Positions 266 through 36,519 of a DNA stretch of 36,519 nt are shown one piece after another. Every line of letters begins with the position of its first letter. Position 1 is the stretch's first letter. The notes beneath the pieces are model-generated. The model was not told the DNA's origin. It did not search any database and saw only the letters and a list, made by a program, of their open reading frames with translations. The translations under genes were made by a program, and so were the position numbers. The stretch comes from a virus (lineage: Duplodnaviria; Caudoviricetes), in the IMG/VR virus record IMGVR_UViG_3300031965_000090, positions 1 to 36,519 of that record; one strand, 5' to 3'.

Positions 266-549
266 ACACACAAGCGGTTATCCGGTTCGCTCAAATCACA
301 AAAGATGAAAATAAGTGGCTTTATAATTGCCTTAACGACGAATTAGACCTTAGTGGATTATTTGAGTCATTCGAGTCGAATTCGCAAGCTGATATGCAAA
401 TTGAAGTGTTAAAACTCAAGATTCAATGGCTTAGACTGTGGGCTGCTGCTTTTGATGATAGCCAGATATCTGATGATACGCAGGAAGAGCTCAGACAAGA
501 ATTCGAGGCAACTGAGGCAAGGGGTATTAATTCGGAGTTTGGATTATGA
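253..549 (+). CDS. hypothetical protein
   Basis: 98-aa ORF with GAGG SD that overlaps both neighbours. Confidence 0.7.
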   Translation: MQTINTQAVIRFAQITKDENKWLYNCLNDELDLSGLFESFESNSQADMQIEVLKLKIQWLRLWAAAFDDSQISDDTQEELRQEFEATEARGINSEFGL

Positions 550-944
550 GTGAATTAAAAAATGGTGTTATGGTTTGGGTTTCAGATGTTTCTGATTGTG
601 ACGCCGAGAAAAATAAAAGCCTCAGGCGATTTATTGGATTATCTGGCGATGGTCGATTCGTTTGTGAAATTTTAAATCATGATGTGCCTGCCGCATGGAA
701 TTTTGCCGTAAAAGTGCCCGAAAAAAAGCTGATGCCCTGGGATATTAACACCGTACCTATTCCGCCGTTTTGCATTAGATCAAAAGCTAATAAAAACAAG
801 CATGGCGTTGTTACTGGTATTAATACTACTCATGTAATTATAAATAATGACAATATATCATATAGAGATTTGCTTGATTATGGCGATCTCGTCTTATCTC
901 GCGACGATATTCAGCCCTGCGGAGTAGAAATTAAAGAAGATTAA
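546..944 (+). CDS. hypothetical protein
   Basis: 132-aa ORF with ATGA overlap and GGAG/GGA SD. Confidence 0.75.
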   Translation: MSELKNGVMVWVSDVSDCDAEKNKSLRRFIGLSGDGRFVCEILNHDVPAAWNFAVKVPEKKLMPWDINTVPIPPFCIRSKANKNKHGVVTGINTTHVIINNDNISYRDLLDYGDLVLSRDDIQPCGVEIKED

Positions 945-1003
945 TGCTATTTTAAAAAACATTTTAAAAAGACAAAGTCAATTAAAACTGAGGAATTATC
1001 AAA

Positions 1004-1726
1004 ATGAGCAAAGAAATAATTGTAGAGCCAGAAAAAGCGCTTGCCCAGGATTTCCCAATCATGAAAATGATGGAGATCGCGATAACAACAGACGGGGGGA
1101 TTGAAAAACTTGAAAAACTGATGGACTTGCAAGACCGCATGGAGAAAATAAAATCACGCCGTGCATATTTTGATGCTATGGCAAGATTTCAAGAGTCTAC
1201 GCCAAAAATCGAGAAGAAAGGCCGCGTCTCTTTTAATAAAACGGCTTACTCATACGCAAAGCTGGAAGATATCGCAGAGGCGATTAAAAAGCCGCTGGCT
1301 GAAAATGGACTGTCTTTCAGATTTGAACAGAAAACAGAGCAGATCCAATCAGGTATATTTTTAACTGTTAGTTGCATAATAACCCACTGTGATGGTCATT
1401 TCGAGTCTACGCTAATGAGCGGCTACCCTGACGCCAGTGGCGGTAAAAACCCAATCCAACAAATCGCTTCAACTGTCCAATATTTACGGAGATACACACT
1501 GACAGGGATTTTAGGAATTACCAGTTCAGACGAGGACAATGATTGCGGCGATCAAAAAATCCAACAAGCGCCAGAAAGACTGATTGTTACTCAAGAAAAT
1601 CACAACCTTTGGAACAGGGCTATTGCAGCATATAAACGTGATGGTAATTTTGACGCAGTTTTAAAGGGTGCAGATATCTCGATTGAAAACCAAAAATTAA
1701 TAGTGGAGCAATGCAAAAATGTTTAA
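1004..1726 (+). CDS. erf: ERF-family single-strand annealing protein
   Basis: YSYAKLEDI and QQIASTVQYLRRYTLTGILGI..DEDND motifs; adjacent to an exonuclease. Confidence 0.9.
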   Translation: MSKEIIVEPEKALAQDFPIMKMMEIAITTDGGIEKLEKLMDLQDRMEKIKSRRAYFDAMARFQESTPKIEKKGRVSFNKTAYSYAKLEDIAEAIKKPLAENGLSFRFEQKTEQIQSGIFLTVSCIITHCDGHFESTLMSGYPDASGGKNPIQQIASTVQYLRRYTLTGILGITSSDEDNDCGDQKIQQAPERLIVTQENHNLWNRAIAAYKRDGNFDAVLKGADISIENQKLIVEQCKNV

Positions 1727-2375: not shown

Positions 2376-3290
2376 ATGAGCAATGAATTAATTCAAATAC
2401 AACCCGAGCAGGCGATGGAAGTTTTCACCAAAGAAGACGGCTTAAGACCTTTTATTGATAAAATTATTAATGAAGTCAAAACCCATGTTTACGATCTGGA
2501 CACTGACAAAGGCCGCAAAGCAATCGCAAGTCTTGCGCGAAAAGTTGGATCTTCCAGAAATTACCTGGATGAATGCGGAAAAGAATTGGTGTCCGGCTGG
2601 AAATCAAAAGCTAAAATAGTTGATAACTCAAGAAAAGCAATGCGCGAAGAATTAACCGAATTGCAAGTTACTGCTCGATCACCGCTGACCGAATACGAAG
2701 AGGCCGAACACGCCAAACTAGTTGCAGCGGCGGCCAAAGCTCAACGACTCGAAGCGCTGGAAAAGCGAGAAAACGATCACGAATTCGCTTTGTTAATGAA
2801 TGATAAGTTTAACTCAGATAAAGCGGAAGCTGAGCGCGTAGCTATTGAATTAGCAATTGCTCAAGCAGAAGCGCAAAAGCTGAGAGAAGAGCAAATAGCG
2901 GCGAATGCTAAACTTGAAGCTGAAAGCCGAGCCAAGCAAGCTGAGTTAGACAAATTGGCCGCAGAACAGCGCGCAAAGGACGCTGAAGAACGCGAAATAC
3001 TGCAAGCCAAGCTAACTAAGGAACGTCAATCACAAGCTGAAATAGACGCTAAGCTGAGAGCTGACGAAGCCGCCGCCGAGGCAGTCAGGCAAGAGCAAGC
3101 ACGGCAGGAGCAAGCGGAAGCATATAAGATTGCAGCACAAGCAAAGATTGAAGCAAATAAGCAACACGTAGGATCGGTTCGCAAAGCTATCAAAGAGCAA
3201 TTAATGATTGATTGTCAAATTGACGAAGAACTGGCGGTTAGAATAGTTAAATCTCTGCTTAAAATTGACAGCGTTAAAATAATTTATTGA
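2376..3290 (+). CDS. phage coiled-coil protein, function unknown
   Basis: N-terminal D..T.KGRKAIASLA.KV motif followed by an Ala/Glu/Lys/Gln-rich helix; ACTGAGG RBS. Confidence 0.75.
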   Translation: MSNELIQIQPEQAMEVFTKEDGLRPFIDKIINEVKTHVYDLDTDKGRKAIASLARKVGSSRNYLDECGKELVSGWKSKAKIVDNSRKAMREELTELQVTARSPLTEYEEAEHAKLVAAAAKAQRLEALEKRENDHEFALLMNDKFNSDKAEAERVAIELAIAQAEAQKLREEQIAANAKLEAESRAKQAELDKLAAEQRAKDAEEREILQAKLTKERQSQAEIDAKLRADEAAAEAVRQEQARQEQAEAYKIAAQAKIEANKQHVGSVRKAIKEQLMIDCQIDEELAVRIVKSLLKIDSVKIIY

Positions 3291-3300
3291 TGAGTGAATT

Positions 3301-3654
3301 ATGAATATTGAACTTAAAAAAGTAGTTTCACAGAAAGAAATGTCAGCTAAGCTCGGCATCTCACCGGCGACTTTGTATAAGCTAATTGATGAATCTTTTC
3401 TAGTGAAACCGAAAAAGGCAAAAAACGGCCAAAATTACTGGTCAGAAATTGACGCGGCCAAAGCTGTTGAGAATTACACAAAGCACAAAGAAAAAGTAAA
3501 ACTTGAATCTGAAGCAAGAAAAAAAGCCAACGCTGAAAAAGCTAGAGAGGCGCGAAGACTAAACAAGGAAGATATTCGGGAGGATGAGTTTAAGCTGCCT
3601 AAATGTTTTATATTTGCGTCTCAATCTTTGAATTTAGTGGTTAGACGCGGTTAA
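3301..3654 (+). CDS. HTH DNA-binding protein (excisionase/AlpA-like N-terminus)
   Basis: SQKEMSAKLGISPATLYKLI...P...NYW. Confidence 0.65.
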   Translation: MNIELKKVVSQKEMSAKLGISPATLYKLIDESFLVKPKKAKNGQNYWSEIDAAKAVENYTKHKEKVKLESEARKKANAEKAREARRLNKEDIREDEFKLPKCFIFASQSLNLVVRRG

Positions 3655-3681
3655 CTAATTAATAACTGAGGAATTATCAAA

Positions 3682-4107
3682 GTGAACAGACAACAAGCAA
3701 AAATTTATGCAACACTAACACCAGAGCAAGTTAAAGTTTTATACCCTGATTTTAATATTGACTGTTTTGAAATTATGCAAAAATGGGCTAATGGATATGA
3801 TGTTACCGTTTTTGGAATAGCGCACAGAGAGTTAAATTTTAATTCCATCCCATGCGATTATAAATTCAAACCTAAAACACACATAGTTAACGGCATTGAA
3901 TGCCCTGCACCGTTTGATGTTATGCCTCAGATAAGGGAGTGTTTTTATATCATTGAATATAATGCGGATGTTGTGGATTATACTGTTAATGAAAATAATT
4001 TCTGGCAGTTAAGATTATTTGAAATAGGAAACTGTTTTAAATCAGAAGCGGACGCAAGATTAAACGCTCTTGCTCACTGGCCGAAACTTAAAGGTATATT
4101 AAAATGA
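3682..4107 (+). CDS. hypothetical protein
   Basis: GTG start after AACTGAGGAATTATCAAA. Confidence 0.75.
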   Translation: MNRQQAKIYATLTPEQVKVLYPDFNIDCFEIMQKWANGYDVTVFGIAHRELNFNSIPCDYKFKPKTHIVNGIECPAPFDVMPQIRECFYIIEYNADVVDYTVNENNFWQLRLFEIGNCFKSEADARLNALAHWPKLKGILK

Positions 4108-16509: not shown

Positions 16510-17103
16510 GTGAAAAAAAATAAGCTGGTTTGTGGCGTTGGGATTAATGACGCTGATTATTTGATTGAAAAAAAATCTAGAATCGATGGCAAGCAAAAGC
16601 AAGTTTGGATTTGTCCTTTTTATCGGGTATGGCAAAATATGCTTAGCCGCTGTTATTCGGATATAGTACAAGAAATACACCCTACATATATTGATTGTTT
16701 AGTGACTGAAGAATGGTTAATATTTTCAAATTTTCGAGAATGGATGATTACTCAAAATTGGGAAGGCAAACAGCTAGACAAGGATTTATTAATCCAAAGC
16801 AATAAAATCTATTCGCCAGAAACGTGTGTTTTTGTCGATAGAGTGACAAATATATTCATCACAGATTCAGGCGCAAGTCGAGGCGCTTGGTCTATAGGTG
16901 TGAGTTGGAATAAGCAAGCTAAGAAATTTAAATCAGGATGTAGTAATCCATTTATCAAAAAATATGAATATTTAGGATTATTCACCTGCCCCAACCAAGC
17001 CCATCAAGCTTGGCGCAAGAGAAAGCACGAACACGCCTGCCAACTAGCAGACTTGCAATCAGACCCGAGAGTTGCTCAAGCGTTAAGAATTAGATATGCG
17101 TGA
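16510..17103 (+). CDS. free-standing HNH-like homing endonuclease with C-terminal DNA-binding domain
   Basis: YRVWQNMLSRC, EWLIFSNF, QLDKDLL and YSPETCVFV; C-terminal YLGLF..P..AH.AW. Confidence 0.8.
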   Translation: MKKNKLVCGVGINDADYLIEKKSRIDGKQKQVWICPFYRVWQNMLSRCYSDIVQEIHPTYIDCLVTEEWLIFSNFREWMITQNWEGKQLDKDLLIQSNKIYSPETCVFVDRVTNIFITDSGASRGAWSIGVSWNKQAKKFKSGCSNPFIKKYEYLGLFTCPNQAHQAWRKRKHEHACQLADLQSDPRVAQALRIRYA

Positions 17104-26854: not shown

Positions 26855-27448
26855 TCAATTGTATCTAATTCTTAAAGCTTCAGCAACTCTTTGATCAGTT
26901 TGTAAATCTGCCAGTTGGCATGCTAATTCATGTTTTCTTTTTCTCCAAGCTTCATGGGCTTGATTGGGACAAGTAAAGTAGCCGAGGTGTTCTGACTTTT
27001 TTGTGAATGGGTTGTTACATAGCGCGTGAAATTTATTCTGTCGTTTATTCCAGTAAAATCCGACAGGATGTTCTTCGCCAGAAGTTGTGCAGTTATTATT
27101 AAATGTGTTTATTTGACTATCAACAAAAACACAAGTTTCAGCCGAATATATTTTATTATCAGGTAGTAATAGATTTTTATCCAGCTGCTTATTTTCCCAA
27201 TCCTGTCTGATCATCCATTTTCTGTAATTTGAAAATGTTAGCCATTCTTCACTAATTGAGCATCCTAGATACCTTGGGTTGTCTTCTTTATATTTGTCTG
27301 AGCATCTACGCAACATGGCTTTCCAAGATCTATAAAAAGGGCATTCCCAGACTTGTTTTAGCTTACCGTTTACGATTTCGCTAGTTGTAACAACATAATT
27401 TGCGTCGTTGATGCCAACGCCCTGAACTAATCTTTTTTTTCTACCCAT
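26855..27448 (-). CDS. second HNH-like homing endonuclease, paralog of 16510..17103
   Basis: GVGINDA, CPFYRSWKAMLRRC, QLDKNLL and YSAETCVFV; same C-terminus. Confidence 0.8.
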   Translation of the reverse strand: MGRKKRLVQGVGINDANYVVTTSEIVNGKLKQVWECPFYRSWKAMLRRCSDKYKEDNPRYLGCSISEEWLTFSNYRKWMIRQDWENKQLDKNLLLPDNKIYSAETCVFVDSQINTFNNNCTTSGEEHPVGFYWNKRQNKFHALCNNPFTKKSEHLGYFTCPNQAHEAWRKRKHELACQLADLQTDQRVAEALRIRYN

Positions 27449-32805: not shown

Positions 32806-33006
32806 TCATTTTTTTAATTTAACATATTCTGCATTTTTATGATGTTCATTCTTGATCCAATGTGTAAAAACTTTTTCAGCCGAATAAAATTTATTAAACG
32901 GTGAAAAAATCAAATAATTATAAAAATACTCCCCAGTTTTTTCATTGTGCGCCAAAAATTTAATGTATGGTGGCGGTCGTTCGTCGCTCAACTTAACAAG
33001 CTGCAT
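32806..33006 (-). CDS. hypothetical protein
   Basis: Overlaps the helicase end; likely ATG at 33006. Confidence 0.55.
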   Translation of the reverse strand: MQLVKLSDERPPPYIKFLAHNEKTGEYFYNYLIFSPFNKFYSAEKVFTHWIKNEHHKNAEYVKLKK

Positions 33007-34468
33007 TTTTCTTTTCCAAAGATTTGGCATAAGCAATCTGTTTGTATTTGATAAACCCCAGCGTTGCCTCTGATGGTTCGCAACTCATATCATCACGCAA
33101 ACCGCGCGGCCAAACGCCAGTTATATCTCTATAAGTGTGGCTCATCCAACCGTCTGAAATATGTCTGCCAATAAATTGCTGAGCGATTTTATACCCGACC
33201 AATTCAGACCAGAGCTGTTGTTTATCGACCTTTGTTTTCTTACCCTTCATCTGGACTAGTTCACCTGCCAAAACTTCCACGTCTTTAGTTTTACGAGGTT
33301 TAAAACCGCACTTGCTGCACTCATGCTCACCTGCTGGTTTCAAATAATCGCATGACTGGCATTTTTTAGGTAATTTTTCGTATTTTTCTTTTGCTTTGGC
33401 GGGTGAGACTTCTTTTTTCTCGTCAGTGTCTAGTTCGTCATAATCAATCTCGTCAGGATACCCTAGCTCTATCATCGTGCCAGAATGGTCTAAAATAATT
33501 AAATATTCTTTACCGTCAGCAGTTCTTAATCCTCTCCCAAGCATTTGGACAAGTTTTATTTCTGATTTAGTTCTGCAAGCTAATATAATACATCTAACGT
33601 CTAAATCTAACCCTGCGATTAGAGTCCCAACATTAATTAGTATCGATATTTTTAATTCAGAAAACAATTTAAAATATTGCTCTCTCTCGTCAATCGGTGT
33701 TTTTGATGTGATCACATGATTAGATATTCCTAATTTGTCAAACTCTGAGCCTATAAAATTTGCGTGAGCCACGTTTTGAGCAAAACAAATTGTTGGTAAA
33801 TTTTCAGCTTTTTTCATCCAAGTTTCTGTAATCGATCCAACTATTTTTGGCGTGCTCATTCGCTCTGCTGTTTCTGATTCGTGATAATCACCTTTGACTA
33901 TTCTCACCCCGTCCATATCAGGTGAAACTGGCGCATAAGCGATATATTCAGATAGGAAATTCTGATCGATTAATTCGGTCATTGAAATGGGTTTTAGTAA
34001 AGTATCGTAGTGTTTGCCTATTCCCTTTGACCAGGGTGTCGCTGTAAACCCAATAACCGGAGTATTGCTTTTATCAATGTGCGACAAAAAAGTTTTGAAA
34101 AGAAGATGACATTCATCAACTAAAATCAAATCGAAGTCTTGAAATTTCCGGCGGATTAAAGTTTGTACGCTGGCAATTTGCAATCGACGGCTTGAATCTG
34201 TCCACGGATGATCAGCTTGGATTATCCCTGGCTTTGGCAATCCCTGAGCCATAAAGCTTTTTGCTGTTTGGTTAATCAATGCCGTGTAGGGTGCAACAAA
34301 CAATACTCGCTTACCCTTATCTAACGCGCCGCTGACTATGTGCGCCATGGTAACAGTTTTGCCGCTTCCAGTTGCGCATTGATAAAGTGGTCTTGTATAT
34401 TTGTTTCTGAATGCCTGCTTGAGCATTTCTAAACCAGAATTTTGATATGATCTTAATTTATATAACAT
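32993..34468 (-). CDS. SF2 DExH helicase with C-terminal Zn ribbon
   Basis: LRSYQ, TGSGKT, DECH, TAT, QMLGRGLR and CxxC..CxxC. Confidence 0.95.
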   Translation of the reverse strand: MLYKLRSYQNSGLEMLKQAFRNKYTRPLYQCATGSGKTVTMAHIVSGALDKGKRVLFVAPYTALINQTAKSFMAQGLPKPGIIQADHPWTDSSRRLQIASVQTLIRRKFQDFDLILVDECHLLFKTFLSHIDKSNTPVIGFTATPWSKGIGKHYDTLLKPISMTELIDQNFLSEYIAYAPVSPDMDGVRIVKGDYHESETAERMSTPKIVGSITETWMKKAENLPTICFAQNVAHANFIGSEFDKLGISNHVITSKTPIDEREQYFKLFSELKISILINVGTLIAGLDLDVRCIILACRTKSEIKLVQMLGRGLRTADGKEYLIILDHSGTMIELGYPDEIDYDELDTDEKKEVSPAKAKEKYEKLPKKCQSCDYLKPAGEHECSKCGFKPRKTKDVEVLAGELVQMKGKKTKVDKQQLWSELVGYKIAQQFIGRHISDGWMSHTYRDITGVWPRGLRDDMSCEPSEATLGFIKYKQIAYAKSLEKKNAAC

Positions 34469-34569
34469 TTGAAACCTCGTCTTATCTCAGTTTTTAAAAA
34501 TTTATGCCAGCGCACGGAGACTGAGGAACCTAATATTGTGGATCAATACAATATCGCGCTGGTTTAACA

Positions 34570-34598
34570 ATATTAAATCATTCTAAAATGTTTAACAA
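34570..34598 (-). promoter_or_regulatory. putative promoter for the helicase leader
   Basis: TTGTTA-17 nt-TAATAT, starting just before the CCAGCGC stem. Confidence 0.55.
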
Positions 34599-34607
34599 GT
34601 GTTTTAT

Positions 34608-34844
34608 TTAGAATGGTAATAAATTGTTGTCCACTGCTTTGTGTTTATCTACAAATTTTCTTAACCAAATATTTGCACGTTGCCTGCTTCTATGCGGATC
34701 TATTTCTAAAAGTTCTCGATAAATTTCGCCGTATCGAGTGAGCGTTTTTTTCTGTAACGATATCGGCAATTTATCAATCTCTATTTTTATAAAATTCCAG
34801 TCACCATATCGGTGTCCGTGGATCCCGCCGTCATAATAATTCAA
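34608..34844 (-). CDS. hypothetical protein (replication region)
   Basis: 78 aa with R.RANIWLR; ATGA overlap. Confidence 0.7.
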   Translation of the reverse strand: MNYYDGGIHGHRYGDWNFIKIEIDKLPISLQKKTLTRYGEIYRELLEIDPHRSRQRANIWLRKFVDKHKAVDNNLLPF

Positions 34845-35140
34845 AATGATTTCTTGGCGTTGTATTCGGCTATTTTTTTCTCTCTAATAATAGATTTTAA
34901 TTCAGGAGACATATTTTCTTTTGAGCGTTTACTAAAAAAGTTATCAGGAAGAGCGTCTTTTATAACTTCTTCGGTTTTATTTTGCTTAGCTCCGTGTTTT
35001 TTTGCTGCGATCTTCACAGCTAGTTTGAGCGGTGAGTTTTTATCAACAATTAACCACATTGCTAGTTTTACAGAGTTTCTAGTCTCTTCATCTAATTCCC
35101 AAATATTAACTTTTTGTAAATAATCATTAGAATTTTTCAT
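34841..35140 (-). CDS. hypothetical basic protein
   Basis: ACTGAGG RBS; directly downstream of the structured region. Confidence 0.7.
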   Translation of the reverse strand: MKNSNDYLQKVNIWELDEETRNSVKLAMWLIVDKNSPLKLAVKIAAKKHGAKQNKTEEVIKDALPDNFFSKRSKENMSPELKSIIREKKIAEYNAKKSF

Positions 35141-35159
35141 AAAAACCTCAGTATTAAAA

Positions 35160-35585
35160 CAAAATTAACAGCGTTTAGTTTCCGACCACACTTCAACCCC
35201 CGATTATACGGGTTTATTTCATAGGGAGTATATTCACTCGACTATGGTCATAAACTTACCCGGCAATTATCACTATCTCTAGCCAGGCTATCAGCCTGGG
35301 ATCTGTGTTTATCCGTTACCGCTTTGACTAATGCGCGATCGGCGACTGGGGGCAAATACTGGTTCTTCAGCTCTCGGGTAGTATCCCGAGATTAAGTCGC
35401 GCTGGGTAGTTTTTTTGTGCTGCTGCTGAGTTTTATTGAGGCATAAAAAAAGACCTTTAGAGAAAACCCAGTTTGAAACAAGCTTGTTCTAGTTACAAAC
35501 CAACGTGATACAACTAGGCTTCTGGGATTCTCTCTAAAAGTCTTTCTTTGTTGGCTTGGTGATTGGCTGTGTTTCAATGCAGCAC
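35160..35585 (-). ncRNA. candidate large structured non-coding RNA or origin region
   Basis: No credible ORF; many nested inverted repeats; own promoter; upstream terminator. Confidence 0.6.
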
Positions 35586-35590
35586 CTTAA

Positions 35591-35618
35591 ATTTTACGCT
35601 AACTTTCAAAAATTGCAA
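35591..35618 (-). promoter_or_regulatory. putative sigma70 promoter for the structured region
   Basis: TTGCAA-16 nt-TAAAAT. Confidence 0.6.
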
Positions 35619-35630
35619 GTATTGAGACGT

Positions 35631-35654
35631 AAAAAAAGGGTATTTCTACCCTTT
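35631..35654 (-). terminator. intrinsic terminator
   Basis: AAAGGGTA-GAAA-TACCCTTTTTTT. Confidence 0.8.
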
Positions 35655-35881
35655 TAATCGCTCCACGAATCCTCAAGCATTTTCTTATAACTTCGGTCGT
35701 TATGCTCTCGACGCGACAAATTATCAAAATCATGGCGCTCAATAAAGCTCTTGATATGCTGTATTTTGCCGCCCCTGGCTAAGAACTCTTCAACGGTTTC
35801 CTGGTCAGATTTCTGCTCTTTTTTGGCCGCTCTTAATAAATCAGAGCGGTGATTGATTAAGTCAGATTTACTTACTTGCAT
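35654..35881 (-). CDS. hypothetical protein
   Basis: AAGGAG SD; VEEFLARGGKIQ motif. Confidence 0.75.
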   Translation of the reverse strand: MQVSKSDLINHRSDLLRAAKKEQKSDQETVEEFLARGGKIQHIKSFIERHDFDNLSRREHNDRSYKKMLEDSWSD

Positions 35882-36038
35882 TATTTTTTAGCTCCTTGAG
35901 ATACGCGTCTCTGATTAGTTCGGCCAAAACCCCTTTTAATGTGTGCAGCGGATGACCATCCAGCTTTCGATAATGTATTAAATAACCTAGTTGATCTCGC
36001 GTTTGTCGTGTGATCTGAACAGTAAATTGCTTATCCAT
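35868..36038 (-). CDS. 56-aa ribbon-helix-helix-like regulator (not in ORF track)
   Basis: MDKQFTVQITRQTRDQLGYLIHYRKLDGHPLHTLKGVLAELIRDAYLKELKNNASK; GGGGA SD; first gene after the leftward promoter. Confidence 0.6.
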   Translation of the reverse strand: MDKQFTVQITRQTRDQLGYLIHYRKLDGHPLHTLKGVLAELIRDAYLKELKNNASK

Positions 36039-36069
36039 TTATTTCCCCGATTTTTTATGTGTCAAGCTT

Positions 36070-36162
36070 TAATTTAGCATTATTAAAGTATAATGTAAAG
36101 TTTTAGTATATTTAAAATAAACATTAATTAAAGTTGCATTTGCTGAATTTTTGGTTTATCTT
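36070..36162. promoter_or_regulatory. divergent early promoter pair
   Basis: Minus strand TTTACA-17-TAAATT (about 36099-36071); plus strand TTGCAT-17-TATCTT (36134-36162). Confidence 0.65.
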
Positions 36163-36210
36163 TGATCATGAAAAGCAATTAAATAAATTAATTAACTGAG
36201 GATTAAATAA

Positions 36211-36519
36211 GTGAAATTAAAAATACAAATTAAAAATCGTTTTACTGGGAGTGTTATGTTTGAATTTGAATCAGAAAATAACTCGATGAAAAAAACATTG
36301 GAGGCCGCGATAAAAAACGGCTCTGATTTAAGCAACTCTAATTTACGCAACTCTGATTTACGCAACTCTAATTTACGCAACTCTAATTTAAGCAACTCTG
36401 ATTTAAGCAACTCTGATTTAAGCAGCTCTAATTTACGCGGCTCTGATTTACGCAACTCTAATTTAAGCAACTCTAATTTAAGCAACTCTAATTTAAGCAG
36501 CTCTAATTTACGCGGCTCT
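36211..36519 (+). CDS. pentapeptide-repeat protein, N-terminal part (runs off the end, continues at base 2)
   Basis: GTG after AACTGAGG; MKLKIQIKNRFTGSVMFE...EAAIKNG followed by S(D/N)L(S/R)(N/S/G) x13. Confidence 0.9.
   Translation, partial: MKLKIQIKNRFTGSVMFEFESENNSMKKTLEAAIKNGSDLSNSNLRNSDLRNSNLRNSNLSNSDLSNSDLSSSNLRGSDLRNSNLSNSNLSNSNLSSSNLRGS
36322..36519 (+). repeat. 15-nt coding tandem repeat, about 13 copies
   Basis: TCT(G/A)ATTTA(A/C)GC(A/G)(A/G)C units. Confidence 0.95.

Follow-up and report, generated by a model that had tools for sequence, protein, structure and literature searches.

How does a tailed phage with its own SF2 helicase, and with no recognizable primase, initiator gene, or iterons, begin to copy its DNA, and does the large folded region upstream of that helicase take part? 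The locus lies in IMG/VR record IMGVR_UViG_3300031965_000090 (Caudoviricetes), which was analyzed over its whole length of 36,519 nucleotides (the window). The initial annotation had proposed, from the letters of the sequence, that positions 35160..35440 on the minus strand hold a multi-domain structured element in the replication slot, either a functional RNA (a replication primer, ribozyme, or RNP scaffold) or a structured single-stranded DNA origin. We find that the element is real and uncatalogued, and we tentatively read it as the RNA of an attenuator-gated cassette that primes or scaffolds phage replication.

Genome setting of the element

The window is the whole virus record (completeness rating, 92%) and encodes siphovirus head, tail, and lysis genes together with Erf, an exonuclease, NinB, and NinG. 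Both contig ends are parts of one pentapeptide-protein gene (positions 6-71 and 73-140 of phrog_31567), so little of the genome should be missing; judged by these ends it is probably nearly complete, the missing part being a few pentapeptide repeats. A 15-bp tandem repeat at 36321-36510 and 2-265 is the coding repeat of this end-split protein, and it was rejected as an iteron array for that reason. Two related HNH endonuclease genes (phrog_953) lie at 16510-17103 and 26855-27448, one of them opposite to the head-tail operon. A divergent promoter gap of 172 nt and 20% GC at 36039-36210 is an alternative site for an origin or unwinding element. GC skew tracks gene direction and therefore cannot place the origin.

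On the minus strand the order is a 56-aa gene, a 75-aa gene, a small terminator, a promoter-like site, the leader, the 280-nt element, a 99-aa gene, a phrog_852 gene, a gap, and the helicase. The 75-aa gene (35654-35881), just upstream of the attenuator, encodes a weak SutA RNA-polymerase-binding motif (E value of 1.5e-5, below the Pfam cutoff), and a motif like it is visible in locus L018; the protein could influence read-through. The 99-aa orphan (34841..35140, minus strand) has two homologs (90% and 66%) and gave no TM above 0.5; it is likely cargo, since slot-mates vary from relative to relative. The 78-aa gene of the phrog_852 family (34608..34844, minus strand) is a near-constant neighbor of this helicase, and Atlas searches gave neither small protein a family. 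A 139-nt gap (34469..34607, minus strand) containing a second small hairpin, read from the sequence, precedes the DEAH, ResIII-type SF2 helicase (phrog_16; 32993..34468, minus strand), after which no primase follows; a similar hairpin also precedes phrog_852 in L037 and in the type A loci described below. The nearest helicases among cultured phages are those of Pseudoalteromonas and Vibrio phages (45-49% identity).

No primase was found in the window, tblastn with three primases included, and the full set of 12 tblastn queries (seven initiator-type or slot proteins, a P-like loader, the three primases, and CI) gave no match at E ≤0.05. Iterons were likewise absent from 33000-36320 in a search that recovered repeats in the HS5 and 1.233.A controls. 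The slot holds neither the direct repeats nor the adjacent initiator of an iteron origin with a RepL/O-like protein, and the window has the combination of no initiator gene and no iterons that marks ColE1/MRB-like origins, remote homologs being possible among its unassigned ORFs.

A folded element outside known RNA families

All of the helices named in the initial annotation were recovered on the minus strand, with every arm at or consistent with its proposed place. The element (~280 nt; predicted closing helix, 35427-35422 with 35172-35167) contains two domains. Domain 1 (35257..35408, minus strand) consists of an outer helix, TACCCAGC (35408-35401) with GCCGGGTA (35264-35257), around a multi-hairpin junction formed by GCGACT/AGTCGC (35400-35395 and 35347-35342), TCTCGGG/CCCGAGA (35391-35385 and 35378-35372), GCTG/CAGT (35371-35368 and 35361-35358), and CCAGGCT/AGCCTGG (35299-35293 and 35289-35283), with mean pair probabilities of 0.60-0.98. 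Domain 2 (35182..35250, minus strand) carries the G5 arm and offers alternative pairings: GACCA/TGGTC (35249-35245 and 35188-35184), CATAG/CTATG (35246-35242 and 35224-35220), GAGT/ACTC (within 35239-35226), and CCCG/CGGG (35212-35209 and 35202-35199). A candidate long-range pseudoknot (35196..35353, minus strand) joins GCCCCC (35353-35348) to GGGGGT (35201-35196); it is the sole GC-rich 6-bp candidate in the element, and any such pairing arose in only 1 of 150 dinucleotide shuffles. Positions 35246-35245 belong to both the GACCA and the CATAG arm, and three Gs of CGGG are also part of the pseudoknot arm. The helices of domain 2 therefore cannot all exist together, the pseudoknot and the CCCG/CGGG hairpin being in competition, and domain 2 is less certain than domain 1.

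The element has a minimum free energy of -80.5 kcal/mol (z score, -3.0; 2 of 200 shuffles as good). Its description as GC-rich holds in a modest sense (46%, versus 39% for the genome and 20-37% in seven other gaps), and its description as ORF-free holds for its interior, which contains no ORF of ≥50 aa and has stop codons in all six frames, while a 61-aa TTG ORF (35392-35577), which matched no PHROG or Pfam family, overlaps the 5' end. Folding is about as favorable for one strand as for the other (-83.4 and -82.1); the strand was assigned from the promoter, the terminator, and the relatives.

Sequence relatives of the element are scarce. None was found in cultured phages or plasmids, none in viral contigs reached through the 99-aa or 78-aa proteins, and no alignable full-length relative in ~1.03 Mb of related loci. 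The sole partial relative is a 151-nt contig (depth of 2.2) from another sequencing run, one of four 151-nt contigs from that run; it covers 35263-35412 with 10 differing letters and one gap, five of the changes falling in one cluster. Two of its nine listed substitutions lie within the 64 named helix positions, both turning G-U into Watson-Crick pairs, and one of the two, at 35353, gives A-U in the pseudoknot; none of the nine breaks a named helix, and none is part of a two-sided change. These substitutions weakly back the fold predicted from the window. With this one partial relative, the fold itself has no compensatory proof; covariation in relatives backs the structure of the leader.

Could a decayed gene or neutral spacer have folded this way by chance? 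The lack of compensatory changes would fit, as would the 7 of 129 tiled 281-nt windows of the genome that match the element in absolute folding energy. The z score, the rarity of the pseudoknot in shuffles, the stops in six frames (which also speak against a decayed protein gene), the substitutions that spare every named helix, and the clear covariation of positional counterparts in relatives all point the other way, and we consider chance folding highly improbable.

Comparison with Rfam 15 returned no covariance-model match at the gathering threshold anywhere in the window, the best subthreshold match being to a plant miRNA model (E value of 0.54); scans of eight related loci gave no matches, and 16 further locus scans gave nothing relevant at E ≤5. 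The P4 CI, C4, and IsrK family models matched neither the window nor the scanned relatives, and ARAGORN called no tRNA or tmRNA in the element. Likenesses to a group I intron, RNase P, a cobalamin riboswitch, and HEARO were dropped because none had an Rfam match. No support was found for the ribozyme reading beyond that of an unknown RNA, and no Rfam ribozyme model matched the window. A likeness to ColE1 RNA II was rejected when nhmmer searches in both directions against NC_001371 gave no match at E ≤10 for any payload, as was a likeness to the T5 leader, for which nhmmer gave no match with any payload type or the alpha model (see below). The element therefore stands much as first described: folded, outside Rfam, ORF-free, and placed in the replication slot behind an attenuator-like leader.

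An attenuator-like leader

After the 75-aa gene, a hairpin with a U-run (35631..35654, minus strand) was read from the sequence as a predicted insulating terminator; the terminator scan did not flag it. Next comes a sigma70-like promoter with 9/12 consensus matches (35591..35618, minus strand; predicted start near 35585), and a promoter-like hexamer pair occupies the equivalent place in relatives. Leader hairpin SL1 (35566..35586, minus strand) exposes a loop (35579-35570) with 8 bp of complementarity to the 3' bulge (35480-35473) of a long branched terminator hairpin (35445..35545, minus strand) that ends in a U7 tail. In the window the loop-bulge duplex has an energy of -7.9 kcal/mol, with a chance of 3e-4 for a preset loop and bulge, and the 148 nt upstream of the element fold with a z score of -4.5 (0 of 200 shuffles as good). 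The terminator tails at 35434-35452 and 35620-35638 share a 19-nt repeat (89% identical).

In 15 related leaders, every one of the 105 cells of the loop-bulge helix is paired, and 5 of its 7 pairs show two-sided changes; relatedness inflates these counts, and slid controls were 34-52% paired over the whole structure. In sequence comparison, a helix that varies yet stays paired behaves as expected of a specificity determinant. A leader model built from these 15 relatives, excluding the window and L002, ranked the leader first in both (35441-35564 with an E value of about 0.006 in the window, and 0.004 in L002, both values being rough); the next independent match in the window had an E value of 0.043, and the loop-bulge match in L002 spans only 6 bp. 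The window leader has the same design, and these matches make it plausible that it descends from the same family. The model had no match in 12 loci whose payload is alpha, beta, or T5 or is absent, indicating that leader and payload are separable. With its U7 terminator, its loop-bulge complement, and a design that covaries in relatives, the attenuator-like leader of the initial annotation is borne out, and it is likely to be a functional attenuator.

A functional attenuator would also suit a different interpretation, in which the region as a whole acts in cis as a regulatory 5' leader for read-through and translation of the phrog_852-helicase operon, with feedback perhaps by the helicase or the phrog_852 protein, as in IsrK/Gifsy-1. 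Between the terminator and the helicase the window has a single, weak promoter-like site (35294-35266), so the operon likely relies on read-through; the 5' arm of SL1 could pair with the complementary segment 35423-35417, immediately beyond the terminator, which, with the competition between pseudoknot and hairpin, suits a switch. IsrK provides a precedent, as outlined in PMC4825925, and in L057, L059, L063, and L067 alpha or beta RNAs directly adjoin the start codons of helicase genes. Against it, complementarity between leader and downstream sequence, start codons included, never exceeds 7 bp, and the second target expected over the start of the next gene was not found. The layout in relatives also weighs against it: type B loci have their own promoter before phrog_852, the gene 3' of the payload differs among loci, and the cassette of L028 points away from the operon (in one contig, with the assembly as deposited). 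We hold this interpretation to be somewhat unlikely.

The cassette recurs beside related helicases

The helicase search set comprised 32 loci at 51-61% identity (12, plus 18 after removing the window, plus 2), including at least four duplicate records. In 27 of them a promoter, a leader, and a 250-430-nt ORF-free payload lie near phrog_852, a recurrence that supports the replication-slot placement beside phrog_852 and an SF2 helicase. Two loci were cut off (L012 and L033), and three had no cassette: L036 and L038, which have little upstream DNA, and L037, in which it is absent within 2.6 kb upstream. Nineteen of the 27 payloads are of type A, six of type B, and two of type D; that of the window is type C, and a fifth, type E, was reached through the leader pattern in L115, whose phage encodes a lambda P-like loader. 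No two of the five types can be aligned. The presence of G-runs on the RNA strand was dropped as a shared trait because 6 of 8 payloads have them but L028 and L063 do not.

The gene after the payload may be the 99-aa orphan, a 118-aa orphan, phrog_852, or an endonuclease (L115), and no partner gene besides phrog_852 and the helicase is conserved. In L028 (one contig, assembly as deposited) the cassette is inverted relative to phrog_852 and the helicase (480-1040, minus strand) and lies between outward promoter-like sites, which suggests a stand-alone unit. Together with the separate promoter-like site before phrog_852 in type B loci, this inversion indicates that the cassette is not necessarily a 5' UTR.

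The type A cassette of L022 lies at 3190-3770. Among 13 type A payload sequences, 14 of the 77 predicted pairs have changed on both sides; one loop varies among GAAA, UUCG, and UAAC, and many one-sided changes yield G-U pairs on the promoter strand. Tetraloop swaps of this kind and G-U pairs are signatures of RNA. They bear on the proposal that the hairpins work as single-stranded DNA, as a priming signal for primase or RNA polymerase, a role that would suit a phage without a primase and an element whose two strands fold equally well. Because of these swaps and G-U pairs, which come from relatives and not from the payload type of the window, the structured DNA origin offered in the initial annotation is disfavored, and we judge it improbable.

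Initiators and iterons in helicase relatives

More distant relatives (HS5, 1.233.A, L019, L020, and L021; 41-49% helicase identity) carry a RepL/wHTH or YdaU-like gene in this region, that of L019 having no PHROG match and being assigned by eye. None of the five has a leader match, and both of the initiator-carrying distant relatives tested, HS5 and 1.233.A, have iterons. The complete relative G001 encodes a helicase and a primase, with no gap between phrog_852 and the helicase; a scan of 27 of its 47 listed ORFs and a tblastn search of the entire record found no initiator, integrase, or repressor. Relative G004 has the leader, and also a lambda P-like loader and an O-like protein whose family match is confined to positions 96-203. 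This protein (L132:8078-9251) matches only the C-terminal half of the family and has a short N terminus that looks ribbon-helix-helix-like by eye; its gene is next to the loader and about 1 kb from the leader cassette.

Alpha and beta RNA families

Type A belongs to an uncatalogued RNA family, here called alpha, with invariant unpaired bases and a hairpin-loop pseudoknot whose arms covary through six different sequences; several members end in a CACCA-like stretch. Alpha RNAs abut 33-34% identical helicases in L057 (3720-3985) and L059 (3700-3960) and also occur at L189:2198-2450, L200:2198-2440, and L136:2500-2700, in L167, L227, L235, L243, and L256, and in the type A loci. A pattern scan covering 25 of 64 parts gave 120 pattern loci, of which nine were alpha (two of these being the seeds); the other 111 had no alpha profile match and were dropped as likely chance. 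Several alpha loci lie behind their own promoter, including that of the cultured Pseudomonas phage ventosus (MG018930, near 77960-78060), which lacks a leader, as does L167, where the RNA is near a cluster of six tRNAs. Of three new alpha loci with full flanks, only one has the helicase within 2.2 kb. The window payload is not alpha: the descriptor was negative, and model R2, which has 7 base pairs and is therefore mostly a sequence test, found the held-out L243 and L235 and not L001.

A second uncatalogued RNA, beta, lies directly before 30-31% identical helicases (L063:3700-3998, L064, L066:3692-3995, and L067:3655-3998). Three sequences show two-sided changes at 16 of 75 predicted pairs, and the beta RNAs of L063 and L067 have no Rfam match.

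Alpha shows that such payloads are real RNAs, yet not bound to this helicase, which supports another reading: the payload as an exchangeable trans-acting RNA unrelated to replication (a protein scaffold, anti-defense decoy, or ribozyme) behind a strong, early, attenuated promoter. One leader design serving five unalignable payload types would fit such a role, as would alpha RNAs that stand alone in larger phages or beside tRNAs, and the complex pseudoknotted cores with invariant unpaired bases suggest a tertiary fold. This reading offers no account of the association between the cassette and the phrog_852-helicase module (27 of 32 loci) or of its absence where initiators occur, and only phrog_852 and the helicase are conserved as partner genes. 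We think it rather unlikely; it and the regulatory-leader interpretation remain close to the replication role that we prefer.

Comparison with known systems

A literature search found no description of the cassette, with the qualification that large supplementary candidate tables (PMC10690425, 10.64898/2026.10.21.760802, and PMC5737381) could hold one of these RNAs. The main text of PMC10690425 does not contain the word "helicase," and the subject of 10.64898/2026.10.21.760802, as presented there, is a PhoH2-linked RNA rather than this cassette. GOLLD, ROOL, raiA, HEARO, and the T5 leader, which lies before an origin-binding helicase, are large, multistem, and phage-borne like the payload, which has no Rfam match.

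The anatomy of P4 CI includes a downstream seqC target and the kil and icd genes. In P4 CI/seqA, P1 C4, and Gifsy-1 IsrK, a promoter, a short RNA, and a read-through transcript lie on one strand, and these systems control replication or lytic genes, as described for them in PMC4825925; the cassette shares this arrangement and an upstream loop complementary to a downstream bulge (8 bp in the window, covarying in relatives). It differs in three respects: the bulged hairpin has its own terminal U-run, neither a downstream target like seqC nor a kil/icd gene was seen, and the place of a short ORF is taken by a large folded RNA. The RNA-based plasmid origins of ColE1 (RNA II/RNA I) and of the marine RNA-based (MRB) type, as characterized in PMC3035462, resemble the cassette in having an ORF-free, iteron-free transcribed region of several hundred bases with a small, variable-loop RNA at its 5' end. 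Unlike them, the cassette has no sequence match to the ColE1 origin or any plasmid, its small RNA would be a same-strand terminated leader and not an antisense transcript, and it sits in a tailed phage beside its own helicase, where an origin role is predicted. By analogy, the mechanism would resemble a ColE1/MRB origin gated like P4 CI or IsrK, and it fails the sequence or model tests for each. In phage T4 the UvsW protein is an SF2 helicase. The R-loops of T4 oriF are a phage precedent for R-loop priming, and T4 oriF/oriG resemble our proposal in having a promoter-driven RNA primer without an initiator and an SF2 helicase in the system (PMC3016281). A promoter and an unwinding element suffice at T4 origins, with no specific sequence, and UvsW removes R-loops; T4 also has its own replisome, whereas this phage has none.

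A proposed model for RNA-based initiation

We prefer a role in replication, which accounts better than its rivals for the position in the slot, the lack of an initiator and a primase, the orientation as a stand-alone unit, and the variability of the specificity helix. From the sequence features, folding statistics, covariation in relatives, and gene content described above, we would predict the following course of transcription, termination, switching, and replication, in which a read-through RNA takes the place of an initiator protein in starting phage DNA synthesis. Host RNA polymerase would start near 35585 and mostly stop at the U7 terminator, giving a leader RNA of ~140 nt. Pairing of the SL1 loop with the terminator bulge, seen as covariation in relatives, would promote read-through when it occurs in cis; completed leader RNAs, acting in trans, would be competitors, and the resulting feedback would be sequence specific in the manner of P4 CI/seqA. 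Read-through would then yield the folded RNA together with mRNA for the 99-aa, phrog_852, and helicase genes. In the least certain step, the folded RNA would either maintain a lasting RNA-DNA hybrid or offer a site for loading, its 3' end might prime the leading strand, and the phage SF2 helicase and host replisome, including host primase, would take over. Several findings count against this role: the payload lacks an alignable full-length relative, alpha, the best-sampled payload type, also occurs without the leader, and a simple consensus scan of 35140-35600 showed no plus-strand promoter-like site from which an antisense, RNA I-like inhibitor could arise.

A broader proposal, which we regard as speculative and rather doubtful, is that a group of small tailed phages has replaced initiator and iterons with a modular RNA origin in which the attenuator sets specificity and dose and unrelated folded RNAs prime replication or load the SF2 helicase. 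If it were true, one RNA and one helicase would make up the whole phage-encoded initiation machine in this genome. Many SF2-helicase phages have no O-like initiator or mapped origin, and for these the cassette offers a clonable candidate of 600 bases whose built-in specificity code could be probed by exchanging 7-8 bases. Should it prove not to be an origin, the cassette would still contribute a new, strongly covarying attenuator motif and several structured RNAs that are in no catalogue; one of these (alpha) occurs in a cultured Pseudomonas phage.

Relation to Eru1 phages

The Eru1 unit of Stx phages (an SF2 helicase with a Toprim primase) has a helicase of the same family, 43% identical to that of the window, and also an upstream phrog_852-like gene. 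Eru1 is described in PMC8044961 as a replication unit without O or P, and the main text of that article does not contain the phrase "origin of replication." Unlike the window, Eru1 phages keep a primase and a CI repressor and have no cassette. The temperate phages PSTCR3 and TL-2011c encode a helicase and a primase and have neither an annotated initiator nor a cassette; with L037, they indicate that an initiator can be absent without this RNA. In Providencia phage PSTCR3, a G-rich 260-nt noncoding gap with an inverted repeat (L006:3714-3974) lies between an unannotated phrog_852-like gene and the helicase, and this gap is a candidate origin for Eru1-type phages.
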